Origin: Schmidtea polychroa
Taxonomy: Eukaryota
Assembly: GCA_044892525.1 (NCBI GenBank)
Contig: CM097885.1
Coordinates: forward strand, 215,946,001-216,010,000
Reading direction: 5' to 3'
Length of the DNA stretch: 64,000 nt
This document shows, piece after piece, positions 5,064 to 62,067 of this stretch. The notes under the pieces were generated by a model, which saw only the letters and a program-made list of their open reading frames with translations, did not search any database and had not been told where the DNA came from. The position numbers were made by a program, and so were the translations under genes. Each line of letters starts with the position of its first letter. The first letter of the stretch is position 1.

Positions 5064-5491
5064 TTACGATGATCCGGATTCGACCAAAGGTCCTTGTTCA
5101 GCCAACCGCAGTCGTTTTAATCGTTCTCTCTTATTTCGACATAACCGTTTGCGCATGATCTTGATGGTTTTGGCCCTATGAATTTCGGCTAGCTCTGTGG
5201 ACATTGACCGGATGGCTGCCGTATCATTCTCATCTATAATCCTCTGATTTTAGCGTGTCTCCATTACGCGCATTTGTATTTTCAGCGCTCGAATTTTGGG
5301 CTTGTCTTGAGTAGTTTGGAGCTGCAATTGCTCAATCTGTTTCATGCGTTTATGCATAACCTCAGGGTGAAACCAAGTCCGTTCCATCTCTCTGCATCAC
5401 TCTTTGAACTTAGTGATGTTGTCTTGAAGACGCTCGACTTGTTGTTGGGCCTGTTCTCTGTCTTGTCTGAGATTTTCGAAGAGTTTTAACA
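5064..5491 (-). pseudogene. Decayed coiled-coil/basic ORF-B exon (unassigned family), copy 1
   Basis: After acceptor TTCAG: VLKLFENLRQDREQAQQQVERLQDNITKFKE*CREMERTWFHPEVMHKRMKQ...KIRALKIQMRVMETR*...RKRLCRNKRERLKR. Aligns by eye with 61601-62067 and 46739-47208. Confidence 0.75.
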
Positions 5492-5734
5492 CTGAATTAC
5501 AAAAACAATTAAACGATTCCTTATACGCTATTCTTCTCCCCCGTCTGAAAGCCTTATCAAACTCAACTCTCAATAGATATATAACAGAGGTCGAACCCTT
5601 ATACGTATTCTATATCTTTGCGATTAAAAATATAAAGATAGTTCGATATGATTATTTATAACAATTCTGTTTATTAAGAATGAATACGACATAAGCTACA
5701 GGGTCATGCAATACAAATAAATATGAAGATCACA

Positions 5735-6125
5735 AATCATTGTTTATTGTTATTGTCATCAGAGATCACAAATGTGTTTTCAGCTGCATGGAGCCGTCTT
5801 TCGGGGTCTACCCCGTTTTTCTCGAGTACTGGCTCGACTTAAGCCTCTTTGATAGGTTTGCCGGTTTCGGCCGCACGAATCTGGGCCTGATTCAGCCGGA
5901 GCTCGTGTTACGCGGTCTCTATGGCGCCGATAGCTCGATCTTGAGCGTCCATTAGCCGATTATTATATGGTTCGGTCTTGACCCCCGCCGGGGCGTCAGG
6001 TTCTGGTCCACTACGAATTACGGGACCCCAGTTGTCGAGGTCTTGATCCCGATTCCATGCGTGTATCTTATAACAGACATACCTGGTACGGAGGCGAGTG
6101 ATGGTCTCGTTGTACTGATTATCTT
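5735..6125 (-). pseudogene. Decayed ORF-A (unassigned), upstream of ORF-B
   Basis: GC-rich island reading RLRTRYVCYKIHAWNRDQ...DRAIGAIETA*HELRLNQAQI with three TAA stops. Resembles WLWNRIRAWNDG...HAIARLRRVELDINDGII at 63250-63960. Confidence 0.55.
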
Positions 6126-7799
6126 TGCTGGGATTGCTAGATTACGACATTTCTAAACATTTACGGTTATAGTTCGAAGATAACAAGAATGCATTCCAGC
6201 TTTCCCAATTGCCCAAAATGGCACATGAACCTTGTCCCACAATTAGAATAATTTAAGTTAATCTTGTTATCCTTGCTCAATTAATAGAACTACTTGATGT
6301 TTGATATATTTTAAATTGAATTAGTAGGTGCAGGTGGACAAAAAATATTTTAATATTACCTCCCATCACAAAACTTATTTATTAACACTAGTATCACATT
6401 TTGTTAGAGACTTTATTCGTAGGTTTGTACAGTTTCAATACCAGTGCCCTAGAGTTTTTTGGGACATTCGATTTAGCAATTAATCCTTTGTTTGAATTGA
6501 TGGGAATTTCATCTAATTAAATACCGCCAAATTCAAATATATTTTATGACGAAATAAGTACTTATGCAATTATACAGGTAAATTATAATATTTCAAAACA
6601 ACAATTATGAAATTATACGGGTAATTTATAATATTTCAAAATAGCAATTAAATTATAGCTTCTGAAAACAACAATTATGAATATATACGGGTAATGTTAA
6701 TCCGTGAAATAATATCTCTGTTATCTTAGGAAGACAGGTTCGTTCGGTAACCAAAAAAGAACGGAAGCGAAAGGACAGATTCGGCAGAGGTGGCGAACAC
6801 CATCATCAGCTATGCCTCAAGACGCATAGTCAGCCAACTAACGATTGGAGGCGTCTATGGTTTGTAATTATATCGATTAAAGTCACTATTTAGTACAAAT
6901 GTTCAGATATCTCCTAAAAAGACTCTAAATCGATTACCTAATTTAAACTTATAAATTCAAATTTATAACTCATATATAAGTAGCATTTACTACTAATTAT
7001 AAACATGTAAGGTATGGTAAGGTCATATATAAAATTTAAATTTGTAAATTGGGATTTATAAATAAGTATGGTCTATTATTATAATTATATATAGTATTAA
7101 AGAGGGGGGTCGTTTACCGAAATCCAAAACCGTAAGTTCAAATTCATAAATTAATATATAAGCGACATTGTTAAAAATTTGAATGTCTAAAGTTTAAATT
7201 GATTTGTAACTTGTAAATAGTAGTAATATACATAGGTATACGATTATGGGCATTGACAATTTACCATTATAAATATTAATAAATGGATAGGAGGGGGTTT
7301 ACTAAATAAAGTTTAAATATGAGCTTTATTAATTTTGTAGCTGGACAGTTAAACTCAGATGATATTGGCTGAATGAATTATGGATCTTGAGTTGCGCATA
7401 TGCATTTCGAAATTTTTACCGAAATATGATTGCTCTTCTCTTACGTGAACTTTTCACTTACGAAATTTAGCTCTTTTAACCTCCTTGTGGTAATTAAAGT
7501 AACCATTCATTTATCGGTTCTGAACATTGAAAAGTCGATTTTTATTCAACTGGTCTTCTTCTCATTCAGGAGTATCTGACAATTTGTCTAATTTCCTCCC
7601 AGCTTTAAAGTTTCCATTTCAGAATTCATATGCGCAATGGGGAATTCCGTACACAAATTGAAGGGTTCTAAATTTTTAGGCCTAGCCGACTACATTTTAT
7701 TAGCTAAATGTTTTGATTAATTTGAGTCTGGAGCTTTACTCCGTTTATAATATTCAAAGGTAATGTGTTGCTGTAGATTTTTAATGTAGACATTAATAT

Positions 7800-8090
7800 G
7801 TGAATTATGCATGTAAAGAGTCGATTTACAGAAAGTTGCTTGCTATCTTGACCGCACTGCGTCCACTACGACAAGCCTTAATGTTATGTAAATCGGTAAT
7901 GTACTACCGTAATATAAATAATAACGATAACGAGTTCCGAGAACTCCGCCGTACCAGAGGGTATTTATCGACGAACCCAGTGGCATATACAACTGAGTCG
8001 GTACGACCTCCGACAACCCCGCAACATATAAATACCAATAAATGCATGCCAGATAATGGCTTGCATACGTCAAGGCTGTGTGCTCAATGA
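7800..8090 (+). CDS. Hypothetical 96-aa ORF or exon, unassigned
   Basis: Open frame in a GC-enriched island upstream of RNA copy C. No recognisable domain. Confidence 0.3.
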   Translation: MNYACKESIYRKLLAILTALRPLRQALMLCKSVMYYRNINNNDNEFRELRRTRGYLSTNPVAYTTESVRPPTTPQHINTNKCMPDNGLHTSRLCAQ

Positions 8091-8459
8091 CGTTAAATTT
8101 AATAGATTAGATGCAGGGCGGATCAAAATCGAAGAATATTCAATTCGATTTTGACCCCTCCTACACGCTAAATAGAAGCAAAAATTCAAAAATTAATCAT
8201 CATAATTATATTAATAAGAGTATAATAATATCATAACCAAAGAATAAATTGTTATTACTGAATGTTTCCGTTGGTTACACAAAATAAACGTAACAAAATT
8301 TTTTTGGCATTAAGAGTGTTTTTGTGACTAAAATGTGGCGGTATATATACCTATTTTTGTGTGTGTAAATACGTGTGTGTGCGTTGATGCAGTAAAACAA
8401 ACTCGAATTCTTTTTAATTCTAGAATATTCTATTTCACATTTTGATGATTTTAATGCCA

Positions 8460-8995
8460 TAATTTTTATTTTTTAATTATTTTTTGTTAAACTTGCCTCC
8501 ATGATGGATTTGAGAATTTCCAGAACACTCCATATTAAATTAAAGTTAATTTTTTTTAAATATTGTTTTCCTAAATTCTTTTCTGGGATTTTTTTTAAAA
8601 CTAATTTATTTAATTTTTTCAACTTCCACTGATTTGAGTAGCTTTTATGATGGATGTCGCCCTATTTTTATGGATTGCTATGGATTTTTGTCTAGAATTT
8701 TGCATTGCTACTATCTTTCGAGTTTATTCGAGTTCGTATTTTGTATTTTTATGTTTCTCTGTTATGTTTGAGTTAATTTTTCTGTAATACTTCTTGCATT
8801 TTGTTGGAGTTTATTTTTAATTTCACTGTTTTTATTTTTTGTTATTTTCCTTTAATTATTATTGTTTATTTGATGTTTTTGTCTTTTAATTTTAACTAAA
8901 CTTATTATTAGGTATGCAAGTTGTGTACCACCACATTTTGCCACCTTTGCAAGATTTTTTGGGTCTAGATATTAGTTCTGGCCCAACATATGGTA
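8460..8995 (+). repeat. AT-rich dispersed repeat family ending TTAGTT(C/T)TGGCCCAACAT(A/G)TGGTAG
   Basis: Terminus matches 22728-22750. Related internal motifs (TCGCCATTAATTC, GATTTTAATCGA) link 22050-22750, 47450-47860 and, inverted, 41270-41760, 34090-34560 and 17190-17290. Start boundary approximate. Confidence 0.5.
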
Positions 8996-9080: not shown

Positions 9081-11579
9081 TAGGGTTTAACAATATTCGG
9101 GTTTCTCAAATATTCGAATATCAAATAATAAATTCTTAAATATTCGAATTATTCGAATATTTCGAATACTTACTTGACTATGTGATAAAAAAATTTTGAA
9201 ATAAAAAAGGAAAATTAAGCAACGATTATTTATAATATTATTTATTAATGAGACTGAAACCAGCTCTTTAAAAATACAATAGCATTAATAGCTTCATCTA
9301 GCATTCTGGTTCTAAGTTTCGATACCACAATTCCAGAAGATGAAAATGCTCGTTCACTCTCGGTTGACGTTGGTTTAACTGTTAGCAGTGCATTATAAAG
9401 TAAATCCAAATTTCGTGATCTTACTCCAGTGGCTTCATAAATTTGGAATTCTTTGTTGAGCGAATTAAAATTATCACCATTAATTGGGATTGAAGGAGCT
9501 TGACTTTTTGTGATTGCTAAATTTAACTCATCGGCAATTGATGTAGGTTCAGGTTCAACACGAATGACTACAATTTCATGGTTTTCTTCACTGTTACTAT
9601 GTTGCACATTAACTTCTTTTAAAAATAATCGTTGTATTAGTTCTTTGTCATATGATAATGTAATGGTTCTAGGTGAATAAGAAAACCATTTGTTGTTTTC
9701 TTTTGATGCTGATAAATTATGCAGAAACCTCAATATTGATACCATTGCTTTATTTCTTCTCTCATTTATACGTTTGAGTAAAATTTCTTGAAATTTTATG
9801 CTTAATTCAGATTCTTCTTCCGCTAACTTATTAAGTAAAAATATAACTATCGTCTCGCAAGTTAATAATGTAGCATCTTTTCGGCTTAGTGCTAGAACCG
9901 CAACTTTTAAAGGAGCTAGAACTGCTAACATATTTTTAAGAGTGGTAATATTGATTTCACAAATTTTATCAAAAGCATTTAATTCAATTAAACTGGTTTT
10001 TATGCAGCTATATAACATTAGAAATCTTTCGATCATTGCTTCAAGAGAATTCCATCTGGTTTTAATATCTCTTATCAAACTTATTTCTTTTTGAAATTCT
10101 TGTTTTACGTATCGCTGTAAAATGCTATTTTTGGTGAGTGACCGTCTAAAGAAATCCACGACCTTTCGAATTTCTGTTATTGCTTTTTGGTAATTGGGTA
10201 GAAGAATAATGCGGTGCTCTTGTTCGGTTTCAATTTCACCAAATATTTCACCATCATCAAATTCATCATATGATTTTGATTCTGAATCTAAAGTATTTGG
10301 ATCACATATTTCTTCTTGATAAATATGTTTCTCGTTATTTTTGTAGAACATATCCATCACAGCTAAATGAATAGCATGATTCATACATTGAACGTGGTGT
10401 GTTGGATTCTCACGCCCAAACTTACACATAACACTTGCACCATCAGTGGTTGATGCAACAATATCTTTTGCAAATGTGATACCAAATTCTTTTAAATGTT
10501 TGTCTACAATTCTTTGAGTTTCTATGGCATCACAACCTCCAATTATTCGAACCATCCCTAAATTGAAAAAAACCGAATCATTACAATGAATATTTATATT
10601 GAAATATCGTTTATTGGCTAGACTTGTCCATTCATCGAGCGTTAGACTGAATCTTTCACTACTTTTTATTCTTACATTTAACCTTTCAATTGTAATATTT
10701 TTTTTGTTTTTTAAAATAAGAAATTAATAAATCCATTACTTTTGCCGGATTTTTGGGTAAAGTATATCCTTTATCAGAAATAGATTGTCTTATAAAAGAA
10801 ATTTTTGTTATTCCATTTACTGTGAAACCATCCTCAGAAACTAATCTTGCTACAATTTCATTAAGTTGTTGTTTTTTCGTGGTAACAAAATTTAAAATAC
10901 TTGAACTGGTACATATTTTTTTTGAATTGAAATTGGAGCTGTCTTCTGTCAAGCGCTTGGCAGTAAGATCCATCATATGTTTCAACTTTAAATGATTTAA
11001 CATGGGAGTTGTAGTAGATCCTTTGCAAGTTACCTTGTGTGGACATTTTGTACAAAAGGCCTCATCTCCATTTCTTTTAAAATACTTCCAAACTTCAGCC
11101 CGATTACTCATTATTTATTAATAAGGACTGAAAAATGTGAAATTTTAAATCCTTAAAAATATTTATACTTAAGTAATTGTTACTATTCTTCCAATATAAC
11201 AAAGTTCCTTTATATTTATATTTTTAGAATATTAAATTAAAATGAAATGTAATTACCTTATATTTTTGTGTTTATACATATATAGATGATTAGATCACGA
11301 TTGAATAAAACAATTGATATTTAAAAAACAATTGATATTTAACTTTTTAACAACGCTAACGGCCTACTATACTACGTACTTTTGAACCAATAAAAAAATA
11401 TTTGAAATTAATTAATAAAATTAGCGACATCTTTTATATTTCTTTTTGTAATTTAAGCTAATTAAAGAACCATTAATTATTCGACGAATAATTTAAGAAA
11501 ATATTCGAATATTGAATATCAAATGTTGTACAGATTATTCGAATAGTATTCGACGAATATATTCGTGTGTTAAACCCTA
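9081..11579 (-). mobile_element. hAT (Ac/hobo-like, BED finger) transposon, near intact
   Basis: Perfect 11-bp TIR TAGGGTTTAAC/GTTAAACCCTA. TSD GTTTCAAC / GTTCCAAC (7/8). Subterminal TATTCGAATA repeats. Confidence 0.95.
9245..11111 (-). pseudogene. BED-finger hAT transposase with one frameshift near 10700
   Basis: BED finger (VWKYF...CTKC...MLNHLKLKH) in 11111-10686. A shifted frame gives FSLTLDEWTS and runs into the 436-aa ORF with TTDGAS, CMNH, TRWNS and TESERAFS. Confidence 0.92.
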
Positions 11580-15182: not shown

Positions 15183-16379
15183 TAACTGTTGGGTGACGAG
15201 GGCAAGCCCATCACCACATTCACTCTTAACAAATATTACAAGACGGAGCCTGGAAAGTACATGTGCCGAGAAGATAGTGAGAGGTCAATATTATAAGATC
15301 AATTCAAACCAATCCAAAAGCAATCCAACCCACCTTGTACAGAAACTAACTATCCTTTATATGTATATTACTATCTTTTAAGACAACTGAATATCATTTA
15401 TGTGTAAACTGTACTGACTAACTTTTATCCTTTGTATTCTGTGTATATTAAATTAATTAACTTTCATTTAACAACTGAGTATCTTTTGTGATTTTGTGAT
15501 TTATATTGGTGTATTGTTTTATAAGAAAAATTATATTTTATTACATATTTAACATTCTAATAAAAGAGGATTAAATAAATAAAACATTGATATTAATTAT
15601 TATAAAATTTAAATAAATCAATCACTAATAGTACAATTAATATTAAATACGAGATATTAATAAAATATTATTATTAACACGCAATATAAAATTAATATTC
15701 TAGGCCGGAAACAAATAATGAAAATAATTATATAATAAATATATAACACGCGATTTTATAATTATTAAAAAAATATGTCAATAATTAATATATAATTCCG
15801 TTCGTATAAGCCGGAAATATAATTATTATATTTTAGGGTTATTAATTTAATATAAATGTTAGGGATAGGCCTGCAGCCTGAAACAATAAAACAATAGATA
15901 TTACTCAAAAAAAGTATATTAAAGTAATAAAACAATTACCTAATATAGAAATATATATAATTAAAATACTATAAATAGAAATAATTTATATTTGGTATCA
16001 ACTAGTGTTGCTAATAAATAGTAGTTATAAATTATAAATAAATATAATATAAATAGTGGTTCAAAATGAGAACCAGTGACGCAAAAATTTGTAAGCGAAA
16101 AACGTGACTAAACATAAAGTACTTAGGAATTGAAAAAGCGAAAAGAAGTACACCATTAAAAATAATCAATTGAGAAACAGCTGTAGAAGTATTAAAATCA
16201 AAGTATTTGGGGAAGCTCTAATAGAAATTAAATATCCAACATTTGGAGTTGGAATATGAATTGAAAATCTTACGGTTGAAAAAAAGTTGTGAAATTCAGG
16301 AGATAATTTGAAACCAGAATATCTGCGGAAATTGTTGAAAAAGAAACAGTTGCTATTTTTTCAAGGTAAAAGAAATTTA

Positions 16380-16755
16380 TTGTCGCAATCAAGGTCCGGA
16401 AGGGTCTCTTCCAACGACGCCCGATGTCATCTTCATGGGCACCAATACTTTTACAGTCGACCCCGGTCAAAGTCACTTCCTCACTGACGGTTCCAGCAAT
16501 TTCCAACCCCGTTCCTGCACAGTCAACTGCCGGAAGCGTAAGCGCCTCATTCGTGTGGAGCGCTCAAAGAAACGCCGGGACAAAACCGCATTGTTCGCTG
16601 TCCCAAACCCTGAAAGAAAGAACTCCACATCCAATCCAGTCCTGTCCAGTACTCCTCAATATCGGATAATACCTGCTGCTAATTCGACGTCGTTCTCTGA
16701 TCCACAACTAGAGATGGATATCGCAGCTATGCTGAGAGAACATGTTGAATTTTGA
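16380..16755 (+). pseudogene. Low-complexity basic ORF-C terminal exon (unassigned), copy 1
   Basis: CRNQGPE..TTPDVIFMGT...RKRKRLIRVERSKKRRD...QYRIIPAANS...LEMDIAAML aligns with 40043-40483. Confidence 0.65.
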
Positions 16756-33110: not shown

Positions 33111-33396
33111 CTGCTTTTTAAAATTATTTTGTAGTAGGCGGCGCTTTGTTATAACAACGAGAGAGAAGCATCAAAAATAAATTTAGTGAATTTTGATTGG
33201 TTATTATATTGTTTGTACAAGATTGCGATCGTTTGTATATTTTAGTATAGTTTTCTATTCGTGTTTTTTGAAAAATTTGGTAAGAAGATTTTTTTATGAA
33301 GCATTTTAAAATTTTAAACTAATTAAAATTAAATTAATGTCTTTTTATTATTTTGTTTAAATTTCAGCCATATAGTTATTTAAATTTATTATTATA

Positions 33397-33959: not shown

Positions 33960-36183
33960 ACAGATATAGAACATTCAAAACTCAAAGTGTCGGAATTTTA
34001 GCGCCAAAACATAAGCCTGGCAGCGGTGTTCACTCACGTGAAGGGTAAATGGTAATTCAGTCAATCACTGCCATATGCTTGTCGAGCAGAAAATTTAGTT
34101 TTTGTAATTTATGTTGGGCTAAAAACCGGGGAAACCCGAATTTTTCTGGAAAATAACTAAATAAATCCTTGTGTATAGCATCAAATTTGGGTAATCACTC
34201 AAGTATTAAGTAAAAACAAAGAATAAGGAAAGTAGAAATATTAAATAAAATAAAATCGCCAAAACGAAATAGACATCGAATAACTCTTAAACAAACAAAA
34301 CACAACCATAACTGATAGGCAAAGCAAAATAGCTAAGAAAAATAAAAAAAAATATCAAAAAAATAAAATATTAATAATAAAACAAACGATAATTAAGAAA
34401 AACGAAAAGAATAGAATACAAAAGCACCAACAGAATAACCAACAGGATCCAACAAAAGAAAGAGGAAAATAAGAAAAATTAAATTATTTAATAAATTACA
34501 AAATAAAAGAAATAAACCACCTCAGGGAAAGCGTTAATAAGAATAAAAAAGAGAAAAAATCACCACTTTACACAATAGCTGGATGAAATTTAATATATAA
34601 GAAAGCGACTTGACTGATTCCCTCAATTTTTAAACTCTGAATTTAGGACAATCGTTTGAACTCACATTTAGTTTCAATCATTTCATTCAAGGTTAAGGAA
34701 ATCATCCAGCATTAATTCGAAATAGTTAGCTTCAGTTATAAAGCGCACCATAATATTCTATTTGGATCGAAATCGAGAAATGTAAATTTTATGTTTTGTT
34801 ATTTTTATTTTTACGTTATGTATACTTAGTTGAATTGTAAAATTATTATGAATTAAAATATTAATATCGTTAATAACGTTCTCTTTTCTCATCATATAAA
34901 TATATTTGCATTCAGGTAAAAAGTCGATTAAGTATGAAATTTTTATAGTTTCGAAAATGTCCTTAGAATGAAGAACTGGAGTCGAAATATTATTGTAGAA
35001 TTTATGAATGGGAAATTAAGAGTGATTGACTTTGCAGCTAAGTTCGTGGAAGATGTTTAGATCGTGGAAATGATTAAGGTATGTTGAGAACCGATAACAT
35101 AGACGCTATTCCAGAAGCGATTTGGTCACTGAAATGCGATGCGAAATATAGACATGGAAAATACTACCAAGAATCGGTGAACCATTAGGCATCGACGTAG
35201 AATCCCAGAGATCTATCAAATTAATAACGGTGCCGAGCAACGGCCGAGGATGAGAAGAAATTGCCGAGGAAAATTAGGAGACATTGAGAGTAAGATGAGA
35301 TTGAAGTAGCAAGAAGAATCCATGAAGATAAAACATCGAAACCAATGAGAAAGCACGAATTGAGCTACAGCGAGCCAGGCAGAGTATTAGCACGGAAGTA
35401 TTTTCAGCGAGTATAGGATCGGTAGGCGCTAACAGAATAAGGGAGTGTGAATCACTCTTAATTTCAACTAAATGAGGCAAGTCTTGATAGAAGCAGATAG
35501 GAAATACTTGAGTGTTGCAATTTTTTTAAAATTATATTATATTGATTTGATTTTTATTAATGTGCATGGCGAAACCGTTTGGGAGGACGTTTGGATGCCG
35601 TTGGTACTTGTACTGATGGTGAACAGATTGTTCTCATAGATGGGTGCGCTAAGAGTTCAGGTAGATGTGAAATAGTGTGAGAAGTTGATCGTCTGAATAG
35701 GAATAGTAAACGAGATTGTTCTTCAAATCAGCAGTGGATACAGCTCGAATTACGAATAGGCTAGTCTTCTTCTATCACATAACCTTTTCCGTTAAGCAGT
35801 TTCAATGAAGCTCTTGACCCTACGTGACCCATTGGTCGGAGACAATACAGTAACACCTCCATTAGCACACTCTGAAAACTCCGGTAAGACGTTCCAGGTT
35901 TACTTTCACTTAGATATGGCCGACCAAGCTGTCAATTGTATTTTTCAAGGAAATCGACGAATTTGCTAAACATCCGCAATCATTCACGTACCTGATGTAG
36001 CGTAGACTCTAAGAAAATCCGTGTGGATAATCGAATGTAAACTTCCGTCGTTTATCAGAAAAATCACCGTCAGTCATTGAGGTAGACTTATTATATCACT
36101 ATATTAAGGCGTGAGAAATTCGCTCGATTAGACATAACCATCTCCTTAAATCAAAATAGTAATCTGTTATTATTGTCGTAATT

Positions 36184-37443
36184 AAACTCAAACAGGATGT
36201 GCTGCTAATATCGACGACGAACAACTTTCTAAAATTCTGACTTCACCGGCATCACTTAGTGTAAACAAATTCTGGGGACTGAACACAAAAGTTTATTGCG
36301 ATAAAATAATTCATTAATCCAACCTACTAAGGAGAAATGTTTATCATTACTAATAATTAATATTATCATTTAATTAACTTATCCCCTGCGAAATAGAGTG
36401 GAGCTTATTTTTGAACTTTCAAAATATTACCTTCTTACCCTCCCATTCTGTTCCTATATATGAAAGAAAAATTCAGGCAAAATATGAACACAATTGAACA
36501 ATATTTAGGGGTAGCTCAAGGACAGAGAAGTTTCTGATACTCTTAAGCAGCGGCCGCCCATTTATTTACGGTACTTTACTATAGTAACTGAGAACTAAGT
36601 AAATTGAGACTTTCTCAGACTCTGATAATCATACAACATTTCAATATCGTCATCTTCTGAAACCAGCTTAGATGGTGGAAACATGAAAAGTGGAGAAAAT
36701 CTGAGTGATGATGCTGCAGGAGGCAGCACATTTCGGACGCCAAAAAGAAAGAGGGGGCGAAAAACTGTTATTACTCCAGAACTTGCAGTAGCTTTAGATA
36801 GAACTAAAGTGTCAAACTCAAACAGGATGTGCTGCTAATATCGACGACGAACAACTTTCTAAAATTCTGACTTCACCGGCATCACTTAGTGTAAACAAAT
36901 TCTGGGGACTGAACACAAAAGTTTATTGCGATAAAATAATTCATTAATCCAACCTACTAAGGAGAAATGTTTATCATTACTAATAATTAATATTATCATT
37001 TAATTAACTTATCCCCTGCGAAATAGAGTGGAGCTTATTTTTGAACTTTCAAAATATTACCTTCTTACCCTCCCATTCTGTTCCTATATATGAAAGAAAA
37101 ATTCAGGCAAAATATGAACACAATTGAACAATATTTAGGGGTAGCTCAAGGACAGAGAAGTTTCTGATACTCTTAAGCAGCGGCCGCCCATTTATTTACG
37201 GTACTTTACTATAGTAACTGAGAACTAAGTAAATTGAGACTTTCTCAGACTCTGATAATCATACAACATTTCAATATCGTCATCTTCTGAAACCAGCTTA
37301 GATGGTGGAAACATGAAAAGTGGAGAAAATCTGAGTGATGATGCTGCAGGAGGCAGCACATTTCGGACGCCAAAAAGAAAGAGGGGGCGAAAAACTGTTA
37401 TTACTCCAGAACTTGCAGTAGCTTTAGATAGAACTAAAGTGTC
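36184..37443. repeat. 630-bp apparently identical tandem duplication across a transposon junction
   Basis: 36184-36813 is repeated at 36814-37443. No differences seen by eye. Confidence 0.95.
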
Positions 37444-39265
37444 AGATCGCAAGGCTGTTTTCGTTATTGCAGAAACTGCTAAAAGCCTGGGACAGAACAT
37501 CGACGAACTTGCTCTAAACAGAGACTCGATTCGACGACTTAGGGTAGAACATCGAGTTCAGAGAGCTGCCAACATAAAAGCAAAGTTCCAGGATAATGTA
37601 CTACTTGTAGTTCATTGGGACGGCAAACTGATTCCTGATCTGATTGGAAAGGAGAAGGTTGATCGACTGCCGGTTTTGGTTTCTGGAAAAGGAGTATCTC
37701 AGCTACTTACAGTTGCTAAGCTTCCATCTGGAACAGGCGAAGCTCAGACTGCTGCTGTATATGAAGCCATCAAAGACTGGGGCATAGCCAAGAGTATCCG
37801 AGCTGTGTTTTGACACTACTAGCTCAAACACTGGTCGGATTGCTGGTGCTTGTGTACTGTTAGAGCAGAAGCTTCAGAAGGAGTTGTTATCACTGGCTTG
37901 TAGGCACCACATTATGGAACTGATAATTGGGGCAGTTTTCCAGGTCTGCATGGGAGCCTCATCCTCCCCAGAAGTTGCACTCTTCAAACGCTTTCAAGAG
38001 TTCTGGAGATTTATAGATACGGCTAAGTATGAAGCAGGCACTACAGCTGATGACGTAGCAAGTTTACTGGAGGATATAAAGCAAGACACCGTCGATTATG
38101 CCAACAAGTATCTTGAACAGAGTCAGCCGAGAGATGACTATAAAGAATTCTTGGAACTTGTAATTGTCTTCCTCAGTGCTGCTCCTCCCAGAGGTGTACG
38201 GTTCATGGCACCTGGTGCAATGCACCATGCTCGTTGGATGTCCAAGGTGATATACAGCCTAAAAATTTGGATGTTCAAGGCGCAGTTCAAGCTGACTACT
38301 GCAGAAGAGCGAGGGTTGCGTGATGTTTGTGTATTTGCAGTACGAGTGTACCTGAAAGCTTGGATATCTGCACCTCAAGCAGCAGGTGCTCCATTCAGTG
38401 ACTTGCTGCTGCTGAAGTCGCTGCTCGAGTATTCATCAATACATGCAGCCATTTCAAAGGCAACATCTCGCAAGTTTGCAAATCATTTGTGGTACTTATC
38501 TGAGAAACTGGTAAGCTTGGCTTTTTTCGACAGTCGGGTCAATTCGTCAACCAAACGACTGATGGTGAGTGCCATGCAAAATGATGAAAACCAGGATTCT
38601 GATCATTGCAAACGTATCACAGTTGCTCTTGGTTCATTTAAAGAGAAAAACTTGGAAGATTTTGTCACAGCTACATCAATGATTCTGCTTCAACAGCTTG
38701 AACTGCCAGATGGATTTCTTGCAGTTGACCCAGACTTGTGGGGAGACAGAGATGATTACAAACAAGCTGCAGAAACAGTTACATCTCTAAAAGTTGTAAA
38801 TGACCATGCTGAGCGTGGAGTGGCCCTCATTCAGGAATACAGTGGATTAATCACCCGTGATAAAACACAACTTCAATTCTTGCTGCAAGTTGTCCAGGAC
38901 CATCGCAAAATGTATCCCGACAGCAGGAAAAAGACTCTGTCCGCCATCTCTGGGTTTACATAATAACAGTTAATTTCAAGTTTGCTGGACATTTACAGAT
39001 TGTTTGTGTCAGAAGCTAAAGAAACATTTCACTATTAATGTCTATGTGTGTAACACTGAAGTTTGCAAAAAAATAAAATAGAATCAGAATTTGTTGAATT
39101 TACAAAAATTTTATCATATTTCAGGCACTTGAGCTACCTCTAAACATAAAAATTTATTGCTTAAACTTTTTATACAGTGTTTCTATACCATAAGGAACAG
39201 ATTAGGGGGGTAAGACTTTCAAAAATTATTTTTTTATTTTTTTTTATTTTTTAAGCTCCACCCTG
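37024..39265 (+). mobile_element. hATm-type transposon, young
   Basis: TIRs TAGAGTGGAGCTT / AAGCTCCACCCTG (11/13). Perfect TSD CTGCGAAA at 37016-37023 and 39266-39273. Confidence 0.93.
37313..38963 (+). pseudogene. hATm transposase broken by one extra T near 37810
   Basis: VVHWDGKL, DRLPVLVSG, (AVF)DTTSSNTG, LACRHH, PRDDY, HHARWM, LWYLSE and VNDHAERGVALI. Lacks the N-terminal region seen in the 12857 copy. Confidence 0.9.
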
Positions 39266-40042: not shown

Positions 40043-40483
40043 ATGTGTTTCCAGTTCATCATCGGACCGTCTAGATCATTATGTAACAATCATGGCCCCG
40101 AGATATTTCCTACTGCAACCCCTGACATCGTTTTCCTGGGAACCAGTCAGATGCAGCCGACACTCACTGGTACTTCCAGACCATCAAATGTTCCAGCGAA
40201 CTCCGACAGCGTTCCAACTCAACCAAATCCACGAAAAAAGAAAAAACGGTTAACCCGGGCGGAAAGATCCAAGAAACGTCGTGACGAGATCTCGGCCCTG
40301 GAAGCGACTCTGTTTGCCGTCTCTGAGGTCAGTAAAATCCAACCGCCGCATGCTCCGGTGGCACCAATTGCCACCCAATATCGATCGATTCCAGCAGTTA
40401 ATTCTAGGGCTGTTAATGATTCATACCTGGAATCTGACATCGCCGCCATGTTAGCCGAGGGCGAAATGCAGACGGCGAATTGA
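40043..40483 (+). CDS. ORF-C terminal exon (unassigned, basic NLS-like tract), copy 2
   Basis: 146-aa open frame CNNHGPE..TATPDIVFLGT...RKKKKRLTRAERSKKRRD...LESDIAAML, homologous to 16380-16755. Preceded by small exon-like segments at ~39330-40040. Confidence 0.65.
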   Translation: MCFQFIIGPSRSLCNNHGPEIFPTATPDIVFLGTSQMQPTLTGTSRPSNVPANSDSVPTQPNPRKKKKRLTRAERSKKRRDEISALEATLFAVSEVSKIQPPHAPVAPIATQYRSIPAVNSRAVNDSYLESDIAAMLAEGEMQTAN

Positions 40484-42984: not shown

Positions 42985-43226
42985 GAACGTCACTATAGAT
43001 TTAAAAGTGACAGTTTATACTGGTACTTATAGATGTTGAATCGACTCCTTCATAAACGTCTACATGATTATTGTACTTTATGCCATCTGGGCATCCATGG
43101 TGATAACCAAGTTGGTGCTGTACACAATGTTTGAAAATCCATGAGCAGGTGAGGTCTATCCCTAAAACTACTCCTCATGATATTTTTATTTTCGGGTTCT
43201 GGACTGCCGATAGAAGGTCTTACGTC
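42985..43226 (-). ncRNA. Structured RNA module copy F
   Basis: GACGTAAGACCTTCTATCGGCAGTCCAGAACCCGAAA...GAGTAG...CTCACCTGCTCAT...TGTGTAC AGCACCAA CTTGGT TATC ACCATG G...GACGTTTATGAAGGAGTC. Confidence 0.7.
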
Positions 43227-43635
43227 ATTTTTATTCTTTTGCGACTGTTGCTCGATTTTTGTCATATGATCGTTTAATTGTGGTCCACATTTCTGGATGT
43301 TTACTATTGTTCTTTTTCTAAAGTTTCGCGCAGGAATTCACCCATATTTCCCGGTTAATAAATGTTATTTTATTATTCTATGCAATACCTGCGAATATTC
43401 AACCTATCTTTCAAATATGTTAGAAGATGGAAGAACGTTAAAAACTTTGAAACTCAAATACTATATAATAGGAACAAACAGGTACAGAGTAAATATGCAT
43501 GTGGACAATAGTCAATGATGATGATATCTATGCGATGAAAAGAATAAACATTATTGTTATAACTTATTATTAACAATTTGATTTATATTGATTTATTCTT
43601 GATGACATTATAATAAATTTGTATTGTTGTTATTG

Positions 43636-46453: not shown

Positions 46454-46678
46454 ACACAGGTAATACAGATACTAACCTTTTCTGATGATTCCAGCTCAAC
46501 CCAAGATACAAGATACCCAAGATATGTCACACGATAACCGTAAAGTACTCAAAGTTGGTACTGTACCGCATTTGAGAAAGGAAAAGGAGCGTACTTCTAT
46601 GCATTATAATTGGCAAGTGTTCAAAAAGGTTTGTAGACTGCCGATAGAATGCTTTGTGCCCGACTTTTGTCTGGTCCC
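46454..46678 (-). ncRNA. Structured RNA module copy E (decayed)
   Basis: GGGACCAGAC...TTCTATCGGCAGTC..AAACC...TAC AGTACCAA C...GGGTTGAGCTGGAATC..GAAAAGG...ATTACCTGT parallels copies A1 and A2. Confidence 0.65.
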
Positions 46679-46738
46679 AACTATTTTGAATCTGACAGAA
46701 GAGTGTATAAGTCAATGGATTTCGGTCCAAACATGTAT

Positions 46739-47208
46739 TTAAATAAAACAAATTGAACTCGATCCCGACAACCATGGCATGCAATCTGAGCCTTTCTTTC
46801 TGGTTGTCGTCTTGCTAGTTCCTTTTTTCCCGGTTTACATCTTCCGACTGAAAAATAGATTTTGCCTTTAGTTCAAACACTCTCTGATGAGTTGGGTCGG
46901 CTGGAAAGAGCTTTAATGGTGGTCAGGACAGTACTATCTTGGTGAAAGACTCATTTATGTCGATTTGTCTCTCTTCGGTCTCCAGGTGTCGTATCTTGAG
47001 CTTTAAGACCTTAATTTCTTCTTGATCCAGAACGTCTTGCACCTGTAAATAAGCGACCATTATCTTTTGTTTATAAGGCTTGAGTGAAACTACGCGTATT
47101 CCATTTATTTGCAGTTAAGTTTTGAGTGATCAGCCCTTTAGAGATGCATTTCCATTTGTTTTTTAGTCTCAATTAGGTTAGTGCAAAATCCTTCGAAAAT
47201 TCGTTCTA
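46739..47208 (-). pseudogene. Decayed ORF-B exon, copy 3
   Basis: Same acceptor phase (TTCAG|T). VERIFEGF...CK*MEYA*FHS (cf. CREMERTWFHP) and IKVLKLKIRHLET (cf. IRALKIQMRVMET). Confidence 0.65.
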
Positions 47209-54070: not shown

Positions 54071-56230
54071 CAACGTTCCCTCTAATTTTTCCTCGACATA
54101 TGCGGCGGAAAATTCGCGTGGGCAATTATTTTTTAATAAAAGACAAACTTGGCAAATTTTTGGAAAAAATAGTTTCTAATGAAAAAACAACATTCCTTAT
54201 TACATAGTTCAACAGGTAATATATATTAAAAATTATAAATAAAAAGAAACTCAAAAAAACTTAAGAATTCATAATATTTTGATAATAAAAAATAATTTGA
54301 AAATTTTTATTTACATCTTTTCATGCCTCTCTTTATTATTTGAATTTTATCTCTTTATCTCTTTATTACATGAACTTTATCTAAATCAATATTGCCACGT
54401 GATGAAATAAATGTCTTTATTCTCATTAAGTTATCCAAATTATCCACTTTTAGTATGTTTCTAGATTTAGATTTTATTGAATTCATTAAACTAAACCCAC
54501 GCTCGCAATCGTCCATAAGCGTTGATAACTCTTTAAATTGGATATCTTCATAAGCCAACTTTACTAAATCTAAAAAACTGAAAATATAGTTGCTTTTGAT
54601 TTTTTCAATAATTAAAAATTTGAAATCTGTATATTGTTTTGAAATTTGTTTTTCTGTTTCTGTGTTATATTCAGGTATGATATTTTGATATTTCGTTACT
54701 AGTTCTTTCTTATAATCTTGTTCAAAGTTAAAATCTTTTGAATTTGTTATAATATTATGATCAAATACATTCCAATCCATTACATCTTCTTCTGGGAATC
54801 TATTACATAAATTTTTGTATAATAGCTCTATGAATCGCAATATTTCAGAAGTAACCTCACCAGGATATTTATCAATAAGTTTCTGTGCACAATCACTCCA
54901 ATGAACGCTTTCACCTAAATTTTGAGTTTTGAGTTTTTTAATCTTTGCTTTCGCAAATTGCATTGCTTTCATTACAGTCAACAACTTCCTTTGAAATATT
55001 TTGCAAAGAGCTGACAACTCTTCTAGCCCATCATTTAAAACTATTATTGTAATACGATATTTTGGATCTTTAAGAAGTTTTGTACAATATTTATATATTA
55101 TATCATTGCCTTTTTCTACTTCGTCTGTGCTGTATTCTATTAGTATATCGTAATGTCTCAATAACCATCGGACTTCATCTAAGGGACGAAATGATAATAC
55201 GTCACATTCGGTTACGCAAGCCACTTCTTCGAAACTGCTTTTCTTAACAGTTGATCTACTAAACATTGTATTGTCTTTAGTAATTTCTCAATTTTACACA
55301 TTATTGGTACTTGTTTCCAGACATCGTCAATTCCCAAGTCTTCTCTATGGGCCACACAATGTTGCTGCAACACCATTATTTATCCAAAGCATTAGAGATG
55401 CCCCATCTGATGTAAACATTACCATTTTCTCCATATTTTGATCATTTTTAATATAAAATTTGTTAATTGCTTCAAATATACAGGAACTATTACATTCATA
55501 CAACTTTATTATTCCTGCACAGTTTGTTTGAAACTCGGATGAGTTTTCTGGACGATATTATACATCTAATATTAATGCTTTATGTGTAGATATGTCAGTG
55601 CTTTCATTAACAATTAAACGATAAAATGTCGATTTTCTTAATTCATCAAATATTTCTTTATGAATCACAAAATTAATACATGTTACAAATTCGAAAGTAT
55701 AGTTTTTGCTTCGCCAATTTTTAGGAATTGTTATATACTTTTCCATATGATCATGGATTTCCTGCACTGAAGCCATAGAAGTGTTAATTTTAATAGACAA
55801 AATAATATTATTAATTAAAATTTTAATTCATCAATATTTTTTTCTAGTTTTTTACGTTCTATTAACTCTGCACGATTCTCTCTTCTTTCTGCTGTTAAAC
55901 ATAACATTTCTTTAATTCTACCTTTTCTGTAATTTTGCAATTTAGATACAGCATCCAAATGAATTTTTGTCGTAAATGCCTTTTTAAATAATATAATTTC
56001 CACTGCATCCATTCCTTTTTATTGAAATCGCATTCAGCATTTGCTTCAGCACCTATGTTGCAAAATACGTCTTTTTCGTTATTATAATTAAAAATATCAC
56101 ATAATTTAATATTTTTTAAAAGCAATTAAACATAACATTTCTTTAATTCCACCTTTTCTGTAATTTTGCAATTTAGATACAGCATCTAAATGATTTTTTT
56201 TCGTAAATGCCTTTTTAAATGATAATATTA
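54071..56230 (-). mobile_element. Decayed hAT of the ZNF862/C17orf113-like type
   Basis: Terminus CAACGTTCCCTCTAA at 54071. Motifs LIVNESTDIS, FTSDGASLM, HCVAH, EVRWL and CERGFSLMNSIKSKSRN (303-aa ORF 55266-54355). ~100-bp internal duplication at 55894 and 56127. Confidence 0.82.
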
Positions 56231-56239
56231 TAATAAATT

Positions 56240-57334: not shown

Positions 57335-57992
57335 TAACATTTTCATTAAAAATCATTAAAACTAACACGATATTTTCAAATATATATTTATTATAAAATC
57401 TGAATATTTAAACAATATATAAATTTAAATATCATCACTTTGATAATATAAAAGTTTACAAATTATTAATATTTTTTTTAGTTTTTTAAAAATATTTTTA
57501 AAAAAATTGGACGAATCTTCCGGCCACCATGAAACGATGAAAATAAACAAACTACATTTTACTAGTGTTAAATTGCAATTTCTAAATGTATATTGTTATT
57601 AAGATATTTTTTATGGTACCTACAATTTAGGAAATGCTACTCATAACATTATCAAATATATTATTGTTGCATGTAAAAGATGAAAAACAAATTATGCAAA
57701 AGCGCCCCGTAGCGAAAGGGTTAAAGTTATTTCAAAAGTTAGTGAAAGATCAAGTGCTGAAATAAGCACACTATAAATAATTTTTGATGACCGATTTAGT
57801 GAAATTATTTTGTTGACATTTTTATCTCATCCAAACATCAAATATGATAAAGATGTGTTCATATAAGGGGATGTAAAATTTAGATACATAACAATATAAA
57901 TTCTGGGCAACAATGAGCCGAAAATCGAGTTTATTATAATATTTTTATATTTCATATAAGGAATTTTATGAGTAAATTGAAAATGGATTTAC

Positions 57993-59024
57993 CTGTAACT
58001 TAGAAACTGACGTAAAAATTGTCATGCAATAAAAACAAGTTAAATTCATAGGTATCTTGCCAATAAATAATTTCTTTTTGATGATGAACTCTCTCCGCAA
58101 CATCAATTCTAGAGTGTGACTATTAAAAATATGTTCATTCAACTGTGGCACATTGGGCACCTCAAATCCACAAAGTTTACATGCTATTTTCATATCATTC
58201 CTGTAACTAAATGAAACAGACAAATCTTCCTTTTGAGCATTTTCGGCAAAAGATTTTATTTGAATATATCCATGAAAACATAATGTATGGATGGTCAATT
58301 GAAACAAATCGACTATATTTTCACAACTACTCAAAGCATCTTTATTGAGGGTAGGTTTGTAGTAAAATAAGGCGCAAGTATATTTGACGCCATCACTTTT
58401 AGGTTTTTTATTTGAGGTCTCAGACAATTTATAATACAGAAGATTAAGTTCTGGTCCATGTTCATCAACCGCATGGACTTCATGGACATTGACATCGGAT
58501 GATTGAAATTGAGCGCTACATAAACTGCATCTTTTTGGATGTTTTAATGGACTATGCCGGATCACTAGATGTATTTGGAGGGCAGCTTGAGAACTAAAGA
58601 TCTTGATTTTTTTGCATAAAATGCAAATCAAAGGACAATAAGAATTGTTATACATTTCAATTAATTCCTTCAATTTTGCCACCTCTGTTAAAAAGCATCT
58701 ATGCTCATTTACAGTTGAAACTCGAATTTCCTGGTTACAGAATTTACAGGAAATTAACTGTTCCAAATGCAGTTTCGCTGCCTCCTCTTCCGACAACGAC
58801 GGAGCGTTATGAATGAATGAGGCCATATGAGAGTGCCATTGGACTAAATCTGAAAATTCCATATGACAAAATACACAGTAATTTGAAGATTTCTGAACAA
58901 TATGCGGGTTCCATATATGCGTAATGGACTTTTTCTCATTTTTAAAATAATTTGTAAAGTTAATGTTTTCAGCAATTTGAGAAAAGTATGGAAAACCTGA
59001 CACGTCCTCCTGATTACTATACAT
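57993..59024 (-). CDS. Multi-C2H2 zinc-finger protein, large exon
   Basis: Uninterrupted frame with several CxxC...H...H motifs (CVFC..H..H, CILC..H..H, CSLC..H..H, CKLC..H..H, CFYC). Donor CAG|GTAAAT at 57993/57992. 5' boundary uncertain. Confidence 0.85.
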
Positions 59025-61320
59025 ACTTAAGTTTTTATGAAAATATTATAATCAATATATTTTTAAAGTAATAATTGATAATTAGAAAATGATTATACAC
59101 CAATCTCTCGCTTAATAAAAATTATTTTTACAAAGTTTCGTCATAACGTTATTTCAAAATTAATCCAAAGTCTCGGTTTATGTAATAAAATTTCAATTTA
59201 CGAACAATTTTTCGTTATCGAATTAATTAATAAAGTTTTTATTGATTATTGAATCCTGCCAATTTAATTTACCCACTCCTAACCGGCCCTCTGTCGAGTT
59301 CGCTTCAACTTCCTTTGATAATTGTCTAATTAGTCGGGTCTCAGTACGCTCCGGGATTTCCATTAGCGATTAATTAATTTTTAATTCATTTGTTTTTGCT
59401 TTATAACTTTTTATGGGGATTCCGTAATAAATTTCTGGGCTCGTCTTTTGATTTGACGTTCAACCATACACACTTCCACAGATCAATATTAATTTTCAAT
59501 TAATTTTTGAACTATTAGTATTTTGATTTTTTTAATGATTTTTATTATGCTTCCGTTTTATTTTATGACTATATATATTACCCCAACATTACTTAGACCT
59601 TTGAGGGTTTATCCATGATGGGTGAGAATTTTCAAAGGATCAAAATATTTTATCACTTAAGATTTCATAACACTTCATAATCTATATGTCCACTGAAAGG
59701 GGAAGCAATGATCATAATTTATTTTACCATAGATTCTTCTAATTTTTCCAAGTATTGATTTTTGATAGTAGCCATAGTTCTATTTAGATATTGAATATTT
59801 TCATGTACTTCGGCCCGAATTATTATTTTAGTAAAGTTTCTTGTCATATCATTTGAAAACAGCTACACCCAATTCCGAAATTGAGTAACCTCTATAATTC
59901 ACGTTGGTGTGCACACCAGTTGAGTGAGTCACCATTTACGTGAAAATGAAGTTACTCAATTTCATTTATTCAATTTATTAAAAATGGTTTTCAGGTAATT
60001 TTTTTAATTTCAAGTATATTTTAAGACTTGAATTTTGATTTTATATAATTATGAGATCATTATTCAAGTTCTTAAATATTACTGTTAGTCATCATTTATA
60101 ATTTATCATTTATAAATATAATTTAATTCAATTTCAGGTGTTTTTTAGGAAATTTATGATATTTTATGCATTAATATGGATTTATTTCGTTAAAATGTAA
60201 GTTAGATATTTTTATATTTATAAATAAATAAAGTAATCACCAAACACATTTATTTTTTAAGACATTTAGGAAAAAATCGGCGTACATGAACGAAATAATT
60301 TTTTAAATTTTTATAATCTTCTTTCTGCAGCTCATTTTCGATGGCTTTTTTCTTTCTGTAAATCAAAATATCTCGAAGGTTTTCAATATGTGAAATGCTG
60401 CCTTCCCACATACTATAAAATATTTTAATATTTTGTAATTTAATGAATAAAACTTACATTGTATTTTCTTCTTTTTCCCTAAAGCTCAAGGTAGAGCTGT
60501 CGGAATCTAAATTAAAAGTATTTTCTTGCATTTTTTAATAATTTTAAAATAATTATATTTTAACAATATGTTAACAGTTATTTATTTCGGAACAAAAACC
60601 TATATAAGAATTTTGCATGCATTTTTCATTATGGGTTTTGTGTTGGTGTGTTCAGTTATTTTTCTCTCACCTTCACAAAACCTATAATAAAGTTACTAAA
60701 TTTTGGAACAATAAATTTCTACACACAGGTAAGTTTGTGTGTTCCTATAATATATATTTATTGATTTTTTTTAGATTATAGAAGTTATTAAATTTCGGAA
60801 TTAGGTGTACTTCATTCAATTGATGAGATCACATATACTACTCAAACCCACCTCAATAACAACGTCTGTCATCCTGTTATAATAGTTTACTCCTGCCTAC
60901 GCCCTCCAACATATTTAATTCACTTTCACGCTAGAGAAATTTTGTGATAAAATGACTCGAAAAATTTCTATATTGTTTTATAAATTTATTAAAATACTAA
61001 ATTAAGACTTCTTAAATTTATGAAATTCATAAATTGGTAAAATTTTGATTCTTTAAAAATCCCAAAACAATTGATAAGATTAAAGTTTTTGAAAATTTCT
61101 GAGAATTCTTCCAATATAATTTCCATGGAAACGCCAAAAATTTATTTATAATTGAAAAATTTAAATTTCTAAAAATTTGGTTGTTTATTCGCACCAACGC
61201 ACTCACATTGATAGTGAAATTTCCAAATTTTGGTAAAATTATTTTACTATAATTTTATAATAATCAAATTTCTACTTTCAGGAGAACAATTCCTGGGGAG
61301 ACTTAATTCCCTATTACGGT

Positions 61321-61552
61321 GGGGTTACAGGTAGATCACATTTTATCTTTCGGACTGTTTCCAGTGTAACCCAGAATACAAATATGTTGCTATATTGCTT
61401 GATATCCGTTGAGTGAACAACGTTGGAACTGCTTCAAAGGGGCGAGTACCAGTGAAAGGTGAGCATACCTGTCTATACTATAATCAGTAAGTACTCAAGC
61501 GGGTTCGCGGTCTGCCGTTAGAAATCATGTGTCCAACTTTAATTTAGGTCCC
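61321..61552 (-). ncRNA. Structured RNA module copy A2
   Basis: GGGACC...TTCTAACGGCAG..GAACCCG. GAGTAC/GTACTC around GCTCACCTTT. Bulge AGTTCCAA with upper stem CGTTG/CAACG. Terminal GGGTTAC/GTAACCC. Confidence 0.75.
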
Positions 61553-61600
61553 TGCTGTACTAATCACCTTCTTCATGTTTCTACTCTACTCAATCTCCCT

Positions 61601-62067
61601 TCACATTCTCACTTTACAAGGCAGACATAAAACCTTTAATACATGACTGGATTTATTTATATAAAAGGAAAATGACACCCACTCAACTATCGTGTTAGGT
61701 TCTTGACTGCCATTAATTGTTTGCTCATCTTTAGCCGAGCAAATTCGTTTCCTTCTGCGCGCTGTAGTCCGTTGCTCAGCTTTCTCCATCTACTTTACCT
61801 CCATTGGGCGAATTTGCTGAGCTACCCTTTGATCGATACGACTTTGGCTTATCTCTGTTTCAAATTGGCGAACCTGGAGTGTAAGAGGCTTTAACTCTAC
61901 TTGAACTTGGACGTTCTTGAGCTTTTTGTTCATTTTAGTGGGTTTGAACCAAGTGACTTCGAGTTCTCGGCACCGTCCCTTAACTTTGTTGATCTGGAGT
62001 TGCAACTCTGCTGTCTGTTTTTGTACCGCTCCATTATCTTCACTCAAGGTTTTCATTAGTTCAAACA
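61601..62067 (-). pseudogene. ORF-B exon, copy 2 (one in-frame TAG at 61790)
   Basis: After TTTAG|: VFELMKTLSEDNGAVQKQTAELQLQINKVKGRCRELEVTWFKP...LTLQVRQFETE...RRRKRIC. Confidence 0.75.

Follow-up and report, generated by a model that had tools for sequence, protein, structure and literature searches.

ORF-B, a gene within the long terminal repeats of Burro-type giant Gypsy elements in Schmidtea polychroa, and its possible role in the export of unspliced RNA

ORF-B is a small gene found inside the long terminal repeats (LTRs) of giant Gypsy-type retrotransposons in Schmidtea polychroa. Three frames on the minus strand of the window, the whole stretch of 64,000 nucleotides analyzed here (contig CM097885.1 of assembly GCA_044892525.1, positions 215,946,001 to 216,010,000), are decayed copies of this gene, which is kept by selection. 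The location of ORF-B in the LTR, its orientation sense to gag-pol, its linkage to a structured RNA module, its low ratios of nonsynonymous to synonymous substitution (dN/dS), and the conserved donor and acceptor bases associated with it are observed, and we regard them as virtually certain. The best explanation of the whole is that ORF-B is an LTR accessory gene with a spliced transcript, whose product may export unspliced RNA in the manner of Rev or CERV; this explanation is by analogy, and we put it somewhat below an even chance.

ORF-B and its carrier element

A sequence-only reading of the window had reported three diverged frames that begin at an AG acceptor in the same phase and share several motifs. 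The three frames were recovered, each after a T-rich tract and an AG, with two bases separating the AG from the first full codon. Homology between copies 1 and 3 is clear (34% identity over 122 aa, E 6e-21 in a database of three sequences), but copy 2 is much more decayed than had been reported and matches copy 1 over 50 aa only (32%, E 2e-6). The CRExExTWFxP-type motif is barely recognizable in copy 2 and is accompanied by stops there, and the WFxP-type motif and an LKLKIRHLETE segment lie in different frames. Copy 3 is on the minus strand, as had been reported, but the end assigned to it at 61601 is about 100 nt beyond the end of homology, and this extra part includes an AATAAA at 61657. Copy 3 lacks about 8 residues that are present in its relatives, and its internal stop falls within the homologous part. 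Copy 1 is 48% identical to the intact ORF-B of E1, a complete element described below, and clusters with a young Burro clade (support 98/97) in a tree for which 27 of 52 rows were kept after thinning and in which L002 and L010 form long branches.

The occurrence of the family is far beyond chance: a genome search with the open part of copy 3 returned 3864 first-look candidates, and many open copies were present. The best 150 of these were scored, all at E <= 1e-13; the overall survey of ORF-B loci scored the best 300 of thousands of candidates. A partner on the same strand at 28-42 kb is found for 96 of the 150 scored matches, giving 49 pairs, 40 of which are spaced by 29.5-30.5 kb, whereas random placement gave a mean of 0.25 pairs and a maximum of 2. 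At G000:C4:44132873-44192764, three ORF-B matches lie 29.8 kb apart, suggesting tandem elements with a common LTR.

Six paired regions were retrieved for element anatomy. The LTRs of E1 (2812-7130 and 32892-37210) are 4.3 kb long and 99.98% identical, have TG...CA ends, and are associated with a 4-bp target duplication, TTTG. A primer site located 8 nt past the 5' LTR corresponds to the 3' end of tRNA-Pro(TGG) genes of the genome. In this region (L051:7131-7156 and L054:2830-2892) the 3' LTR has no purine-rich tract before it. At G000:C1:130.90-130.95 Mb (L166), tRNA-Pro(TGG) genes form a large array repeated in tandem every 475 bp, and the pattern has 1574 matches genome-wide. The long frame of E1 includes, above the curated cut-offs of Pfam, CCHC, MATH, viral fusion glycoprotein, protease, reverse transcriptase (RT), RNase H, integrase, and ankyrin domains, and downstream of it Pfam identifies open reading frames (ORFs) with TRAF-MATH and BIR-RING domains. 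This frame is in two pieces in E1 (645 and 4223 aa) and is a single frame of 4442 aa in E3. BCL2-like, Ubi/SUMO-like, and dUTPase-like motifs were not found by Pfam at E <= 0.01; the published annotation was partly made with HHpred.

Two further elements with paired LTRs have Burro-like interiors and carry an ORF-B lineage that is 40% identical to that of E1. Among 20 stretches, perfect 4-bp target duplications flank the solo LTRs L144, L148, L150, L153, and L155. An older LTR type resembling that of copy 3 is followed by an exact primer-site pattern once in the genome, and then by a leader RING ORF.

The architecture of E1 is that described, in the text available, for the Burro/GYPSM1 giant Gypsy-like elements (PMC6431247), and giant elements of this kind in planarians are also treated in the available parts of PMC13465017, PMC8532177, PMC11410931, and PMC13238120. 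The likeness comprises a length of more than 30 kb, LTRs of several kilobases, a Gag-MATH-env-PR-RT-RH-IN-ankyrin polyprotein, and a BIR domain. The carrier is classified as a Burro-type giant Gypsy by this architecture, and not by identity to the published Burro1-4 sequences. The sequence-only reading had named two contexts, of which giant Gypsy elements were one, and the Gypsy-type RT, RNase H, and integrase together with the paired LTRs bear this out. The carrier element is already known. ORFs inside the Burro LTR, a spliced leader, and a split codon were not described in the available parts of the literature searched; Grohme 2018, Lee 2026, and the supplements were outside this scope and may describe them. 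The available main text of PMC13524379 makes no mention of Burro or planarians.

Two ORFs are found within the LTR. In L051, ORF-A (5686-6048) and ORF-B (6265-6729) are both sense to gag-pol, and the RNA module comprises the last ~240 nt of the LTR. The earlier proposal that ORF-B is a protein of the element carrying the RNA therefore stands, but not as internal cargo, because ORF-B lies inside the LTR itself. ORF-A and its relatives retain an RLRxRxIWxxIHxW core and a terminal KRGRPRK across lineages that are about 30% identical, and have no Pfam match; the RGRP segment is AT-hook-like. The solo LTR that includes copy 1 (Table 1) is colinear with the LTR of E1, with 71% identity in the 5' 700 nt, 76% in ORF-A, and 80% at the 3' end, and its flanks, CATA and TATA, represent a 4-bp target duplication with one mismatch. 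Copies 2 and 3 belong to older 3' LTR fragments whose 5' ends are not placed.

Upstream of the module and no more than 900 nt from it, ORF-B is present at 53 of the 59 loci that the protein search found and at 11 of the 19 that the module search found. Of the six unlinked loci, three are rearranged LTRs (L028, L034, and L042), two have LTR-like pieces upstream (L030 and L037), and the sixth is L040. Among the best 300 candidates scored, this distribution is that of a gene linked to the module and not of a host gene separate from it, which the sequence-only reading had named as the contrary outcome.

Selection was analyzed with 78 ORF-B loci, of which 51 could be aligned from the N-terminus and 38 have an open frame of at least 120 codons. 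Pairwise dN/dS has a median of 0.09-0.23 in every divergence bin; the set was chosen for open frames, which favors intact copies, and the pairs are related and thus not independent. Successive regions along the core and basic part have dN/dS of 0.10, 0.08, 0.19, and 0.21, and the C-terminal tail has 0.72 (181 pairs, with synonymous divergence, pS, of 0.1-0.6). The tail is an internal near-neutral control, and values of 0.08-0.21 outside it among open copies agree with the earlier claim of purifying selection, by which ORF-B is kept. Private variants gave a value of 0.27 and shared variants one of 0.14 (p 0.15); the loci compared favor intact copies, and 3 of 30 that lack the acceptor pattern were dropped.

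Predicted splicing of ORF-B and the structured LTR end

The proposal that ORF-B starts at a splice acceptor is upheld by the wider set of loci: the acceptor reads AG/TG (the slash marks the splice boundary) in 46 of 51 loci, and the second base after it is G in all 38 open copies. As a control, 16 conserved codon columns with a degenerate third position were scored, and the most frequent third base there has a median share of 56% and a maximum of 92%. Because this G is invariant where a Val or Leu codon would wobble, Met is indicated, and an upstream exon ending in A is predicted.

All LTR families examined have a common layout, in which a conserved TATA box and an initiator-like site occur ~655 nt into the LTR. 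Of 18 rows, 17 have A as the last base before the first donor past these sites, with positions -2 and -3 variable. These rows include both LTRs of E6, and one of them, L154, has two candidate donors that each end in A. An A-ending donor is also present in two older copies. Two promoters lack a donor in the searched stretch; in S2 and L158 the donor is located further on and ends in A, and in L144 no clear donor follows the promoter. The last base of exons is usually G rather than A. The only donor with G (L148, the same as L039) belongs to an LTR whose ORF-B has a Met at codon 4. At the ORF-A acceptor, two freely varying bases are followed by the gene's own ATG, a spacing that was partly imposed by the search pattern. 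A DNA search with the promoter region returned near-identical copies only. Together, these sequence patterns indicate that the ORF-B mRNA junction likely builds an ATG by splicing. Spliced-leader (SL) trans-splicing was also considered as the source of the start codon and was rejected: the SL ends in AUG, and an SL with this end would be out of frame with ORF-B.

An AG is located 0-3 nt before the start ATG of seven other accessory ORFs of E1 (before the second ATG in the case of a 269-aa ORF), which suggests that one leader is joined to many acceptors. These ORFs suggest that expression of the element relies on alternative splicing, and that its unspliced RNA needs a route of its own. In L051:5259-5294 (plus), a 36-nt exon-like block with a GT donor lies in the LTR; this donor is mutated in E3. 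In most of the 38 loci listed, an AATAAA or ATTAAA precedes the LTR end by ~300-370 nt; the E1 type is an exception.

The RNA module was searched for separately, yielding 702 candidates, of which 40 were scored; apart from the window's own copy, these have 76-82% identity. At 14 of 20 loci, similarity stops abruptly at a CA-ending (or decayed) motif, beyond which the flanks are unrelated, and in 5' LTRs the primer site follows the module. The module is the 3' end of the LTR rather than a separate RNA gene. Across 19 diverged copies, the 48 predicted pairs are 95.9% paired. Two-sided changes are seen in 13 of the 48 pairs, compared with 6.4 in shuffles, and none of 500 shuffles reaches 13, although the relatedness of the copies inflates this contrast. 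The fold of the E1 copy has a z of -4.4. In an Rfam search of the whole window, the module had no match, no ribozyme was found at E <= 1, and the only matches were mir-753 and low-complexity microRNAs. A tRNA-like 3' end and a telomere-attachment signal were dropped as interpretations of the module, which is an LTR terminus preceding a primer site.

In the proposed mechanism, transcription would start at the TATA/initiator region, ~675 nt into the LTR, and a leader of 55-70 nt ending in A would be joined to one of several acceptors. Joining of this A to the AG/TG acceptor of ORF-B would create A/TG, which would serve as the start codon where the frame of an upstream ATG is closed, and would be an internal Met following an extension where it is open. 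The ORF-B mRNA would end at the poly(A) signal ~300 nt before the LTR end. Because the module is downstream of this signal and inside the leader-spliced introns, the mRNAs of ORF-A and ORF-B would lack it, as would the leader-spliced mRNAs of internal ORFs, and it would be found in read-through, intron-retaining RNA only. The start site, leader splicing, A/TG junction, poly(A) end, and resulting module distribution are, taken jointly, quite probable.

Possible functions of ORF-B

In the AlphaFold model, the ORF-B monomer has two long helices, at residues 2-39 and 42-92, that are interrupted at the WFxP motif; after them come a short helix, then a linker, then a helix of basic character. Its mean local confidence (pLDDT) is 83 and its global score (pTM) is 0.36, so the helices alone are trustworthy. 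A basic segment of 25 residues includes 11-12 Lys and Arg and has dN/dS of 0.21. No homologues were found among 107 candidates of similar length, nor, as weaker evidence, among 7993 longer candidates. A single match in 1.84 billion representatives is an unnamed protein of 157 aa (P0002) that is 40% identical to E1 ORF-B and up to 86% identical to another ORF-B lineage of this genome. Pfam gave nothing at cut-off, only seven scattered coiled-coil families, each in 1 of 22 members. The best match in a sequence search of the PDB was a liprin coiled coil at E 0.07, and ESM Atlas offered generic coiled-coil look-alikes with low recognition. Foldseek, suggested earlier as a route to a homologue, had no match in the PDB or viral sets at E <= 0.001. 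A paralogue among the ORFs of E1 itself was not detected (best E 0.025). In bZIP proteins, a basic region with an invariant Asn and Arg is located directly N-terminal to the zipper. A bZIP identity was rejected for ORF-B: its basic part is C-terminal to the coil, the Asn is missing in two of three lineages, and Pfam bZIP is absent from all 22 members.

An export role is proposed on account of the apparently heavy alternative splicing together with a 30-kb unspliced RNA, the small, basic, and helical nature of ORF-B, and the structured element predicted on unspliced RNA. The proposal is made by analogy with CERV of Cer1, and not by homology. The long helix of ORF-B would oligomerize, and the C-terminal part rich in Lys and Arg would direct the protein to the nucleus and bind structured RNA. 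Binding to the module would promote export of the 30-kb genomic RNA. Taken together, these properties are tentative, and we consider them a shade less probable than the explanation as a whole.

Several observations weigh against an exporter made from a spliced mRNA. The basic segment is as rich in Lys as in Arg (7K+5R, 7K+4R, and 6K+6R), and the basic motifs of Rev proteins are dominated by Arg. Matches to the leucine-rich pattern of nuclear export signals, which is unspecific and common by chance, occur in all three proteins compared, but at partly different places. Searches of Pfam and the PDB and with Foldseek revealed no sequence or fold similarity of ORF-B to Rev, Rex, Rem, or CERV. Roles of U5 in priming, packaging, or integration would explain the conserved module equally well. 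In 11 of 18 rows the leader has an upstream ATG whose open frame runs on into that of ORF-B and would add a poorly conserved extension of 10-14 residues, and the split codon need not be the start in these rows; in the E5/E6/L155 lineage, with a closed or shifted upstream frame, the start would be the split ATG. The sequence signature of a spliced mRNA is strong at donor and acceptor, but the leader-ORF-B junction, start site, and poly(A) site found no support in contigs from sequencing runs, which are not recorded as RNA and in which the leader falls outside the compared stretches. One contig of run X2, of unrecorded kind, joins L051 5294 to 5450 and skips a GT..AG interval (5295-5449), but this is a different intron of the same LTR and a weak hint only. 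Finally, the ORF-B copies are related, so the counts represent non-independent events.

The chief alternative to an exporter is that ORF-B regulates transcription or chromatin of the LTR in the nucleus, as a Tat/Tax/Tas-like or anti-silencing factor, perhaps paired through its coil with ORF-A. Both ORFs have helical segments and basic ends, share an LTR and a leader phase, and are kept together in lineages that are 28-40% identical, and Burro is targeted by PIWI silencing according to the available text of PMC8532177. However, ORF-B matches no DNA-binding family, its basic part follows the coil instead of preceding it, the bZIP-like Asn is mostly absent as noted, and nothing links ORF-B to DNA rather than RNA. 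We consider this role unlikely, although it deserves serious attention.

Rather more doubtful is a helper of the particle or of replication, such as an RNA chaperone or nuclear-import factor acting in packaging, tRNA annealing, or strand transfer over a predicted R region of ~3.3 kb. A basic tail with a coiled coil, encoded next to structured, primer-proximal RNA, would suit such a function, and the available text of PMC7264820 reports that nuclear roles of this kind have been proposed for additional ORFs of plant elements. Yet Gag already has CCHC knuckles, and a separate LTR mRNA, which solo LTRs might also produce, appears to fit a trans-acting regulator better. The suggestion in the sequence-only reading that ORF-B could be a structural protein is likewise not favored over a regulatory role, although its view of ORF-B as a protein of the element is retained.

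Less probable again is an action of ORF-B on the host cell, comparable to that of the BIR-RING, TRAF, and MATH cargo, with solo LTRs perhaps supplying ORF-B for the benefit of the host. Burro elements include apoptosis and ubiquitin modules (PMC6431247, available text), the B-IAP of Burro1 is reported, at second hand, to protect stem cells (PMC13465017, available text), and many ORF-B copies are open. Against this, no host homologue was found among the candidates searched, and all three copies in the window are decayed; the comparison of private with shared variants given above shows no significant difference in its intact-biased set. A Penelope-like/Terminon element or a host gene family, the former being the other context named by the sequence-only reading, can be dismissed for practical purposes: a single telomere-like hexamer at the module end and a frame with a splice acceptor would be in keeping with a Terminon, but the paired LTRs, target duplications, tRNA-Pro primer site after the module, and Gypsy-type RT, RNase H, and integrase, with no Rfam match to a 3' hammerhead or other ribozyme, are not.

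Window features and comparison with known systems

The coordinates of the LTR features are collected in Table 1. The possible ORF-A remnant upstream of copy 3 has W-x-R-I-x-x-W-N and KRGLP segments split over two frames. From 22743 to ~22000 (minus), the window includes the 5' end of another Burro-type LTR. Its own TATA/initiator-like site lies near 22079, and it apparently lacks both ORF-B and the module.

Table 1. Positions in the window of LTR, ORF-A, ORF-B, and RNA module features
Feature	Position	Strand	Remarks
Decayed solo LTR, Burro-type, with ORF-B copy 1	4692..8988	minus	4297 bp, TG...CA
TATA box, initiator-like site (~8329), and predicted leader exon, whose last base is the A at 8259, followed by a GT donor	8259..8351	minus	
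ORF-A, decayed, with C-terminal RGRP segment	5780..6150	minus	52% identity to intact E1 ORF-A, E 3e-30
ORF-B copy 1, predicted last exon	5064..5491	minus	Acceptor AG/TG; 2 internal stops
AATAAA after ORF-B copy 1, predicted poly(A) signal	5011..5016	minus	~320 nt from LTR end
RNA module copy 1, structured LTR 3' end, predicted U5	4692..4925	minus	Alignment, covariation
ORF-B copy 2	46739..47208	minus	Heavily decayed: frameshifts, stops
RNA module copy 2, degenerate, LTR terminus unrecognizable	46456..46682	minus	68-70% matches to LTR ends
ORF-B copy 3, older lineage	61700..62067	minus	Acceptor AG/TG; one internal stop
RNA module copy 3, LTR 3' end	61317..61559	minus	
Possible ORF-A remnant upstream of copy 3, weak	63317..63696	minus	tblastn E 0.023

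Several other features were seen in the window. A hairpin of the mir-753 family, which is of planarian origin, matches Rfam at 60017-60078 (plus) with 67.5 bits against a gathering score of 62. An exact tandem duplication of 631 bp at 36184-37444 adjoins long ORFs (37259-38963) that are transposase-like in appearance. A second repeated orphan family is represented by a pair of related short ORFs that share the basic motif KRKRLxRxERSKKRR (16339-16755 and 40043-40483, both plus), and DNA related to them is also present near 43108-43248. Frames resembling DNA transposases, hAT/BED-finger-like by appearance, are located at 9245-11114 (minus), where 9245-10723 is open for 492 aa, at 3133-4157 (plus), and at 54355-55287 (minus). 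An open frame of 359 aa at 57966-59045 (minus) has several C2H2-like zinc-finger spacings and is possibly a host exon.

MMTV sag and HIV nef are genes that overlap the LTR, in the U3 region of vertebrate retroviruses. ORF-B resembles them as protein-coding sequence in an LTR, but differs in that it is predicted to lie past the start site, within an R region of great length, and in having a second gene beside it. A solo LTR would then carry both genes as a self-contained cassette. Conceivably, though this is speculative and on balance unlikely, Burro could be an invertebrate element comparable to complex retroviruses, with an LTR that is a regulatory cassette of an AT-hook protein and a Rev-like coiled-coil protein. 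In that case a single leader exon would be joined to about nine alternative acceptors, and the start codon of the exporter would arise by splicing only, giving a splicing-gated feedback switch between accessory mRNAs and unspliced genomic RNA; any of the many intact solo LTRs of the genome could then express both regulators in trans. If ORF-B is an export factor, it would also be an example of regulatory genes that lie wholly inside the LTR and are spread by solo LTRs.

Burro elements are abundant in planarians, and the support of stem cells by one of their cargo proteins has been reported in the sources available. ORF-B provides a concrete candidate for the export of a 30-kb RNA, with an exact predicted splice junction. 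Burro RNA export and accessory-ORF expression were not addressed in the available parts of the literature searched, a scope outside of which the primary Burro descriptions lie.

Additional ORFs of plant Gypsy elements (Grande, RIRE2, and Retand; PMC7264820, available text) are similar to ORF-B in encoding conserved, orphan, and probably nuclear accessory proteins. HIV Rev, HTLV Rex, and MMTV Rem are small basic proteins from spliced mRNAs, as is predicted for ORF-B. They act with RNA response elements (PMC2661877, available text), and for ORF-B too a structured element is predicted on intron-retaining RNA only. In contrast, ORF-B has no sequence or fold match to them, includes a long coiled coil and a Lys-rich basic part, and is encoded wholly inside the LTR. 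In Cer1 of C. elegans, CERV is produced from a spliced mRNA, has a potential leucine zipper, a nuclear localization signal, and a candidate nuclear export signal, and is required for export of genomic RNA (PMC10309623, available text). As described there, CERV likewise belongs to a Gypsy-type element, is made from a spliced mRNA (predicted for ORF-B), and lacks homologues outside its host group. ORF-B differs in its length of ~150 aa, its position inside the LTR, and its lack of detected similarity to CERV. If ORF-B is a true export factor, then it would be the second invertebrate Gypsy example after CERV, and one that evolved independently.

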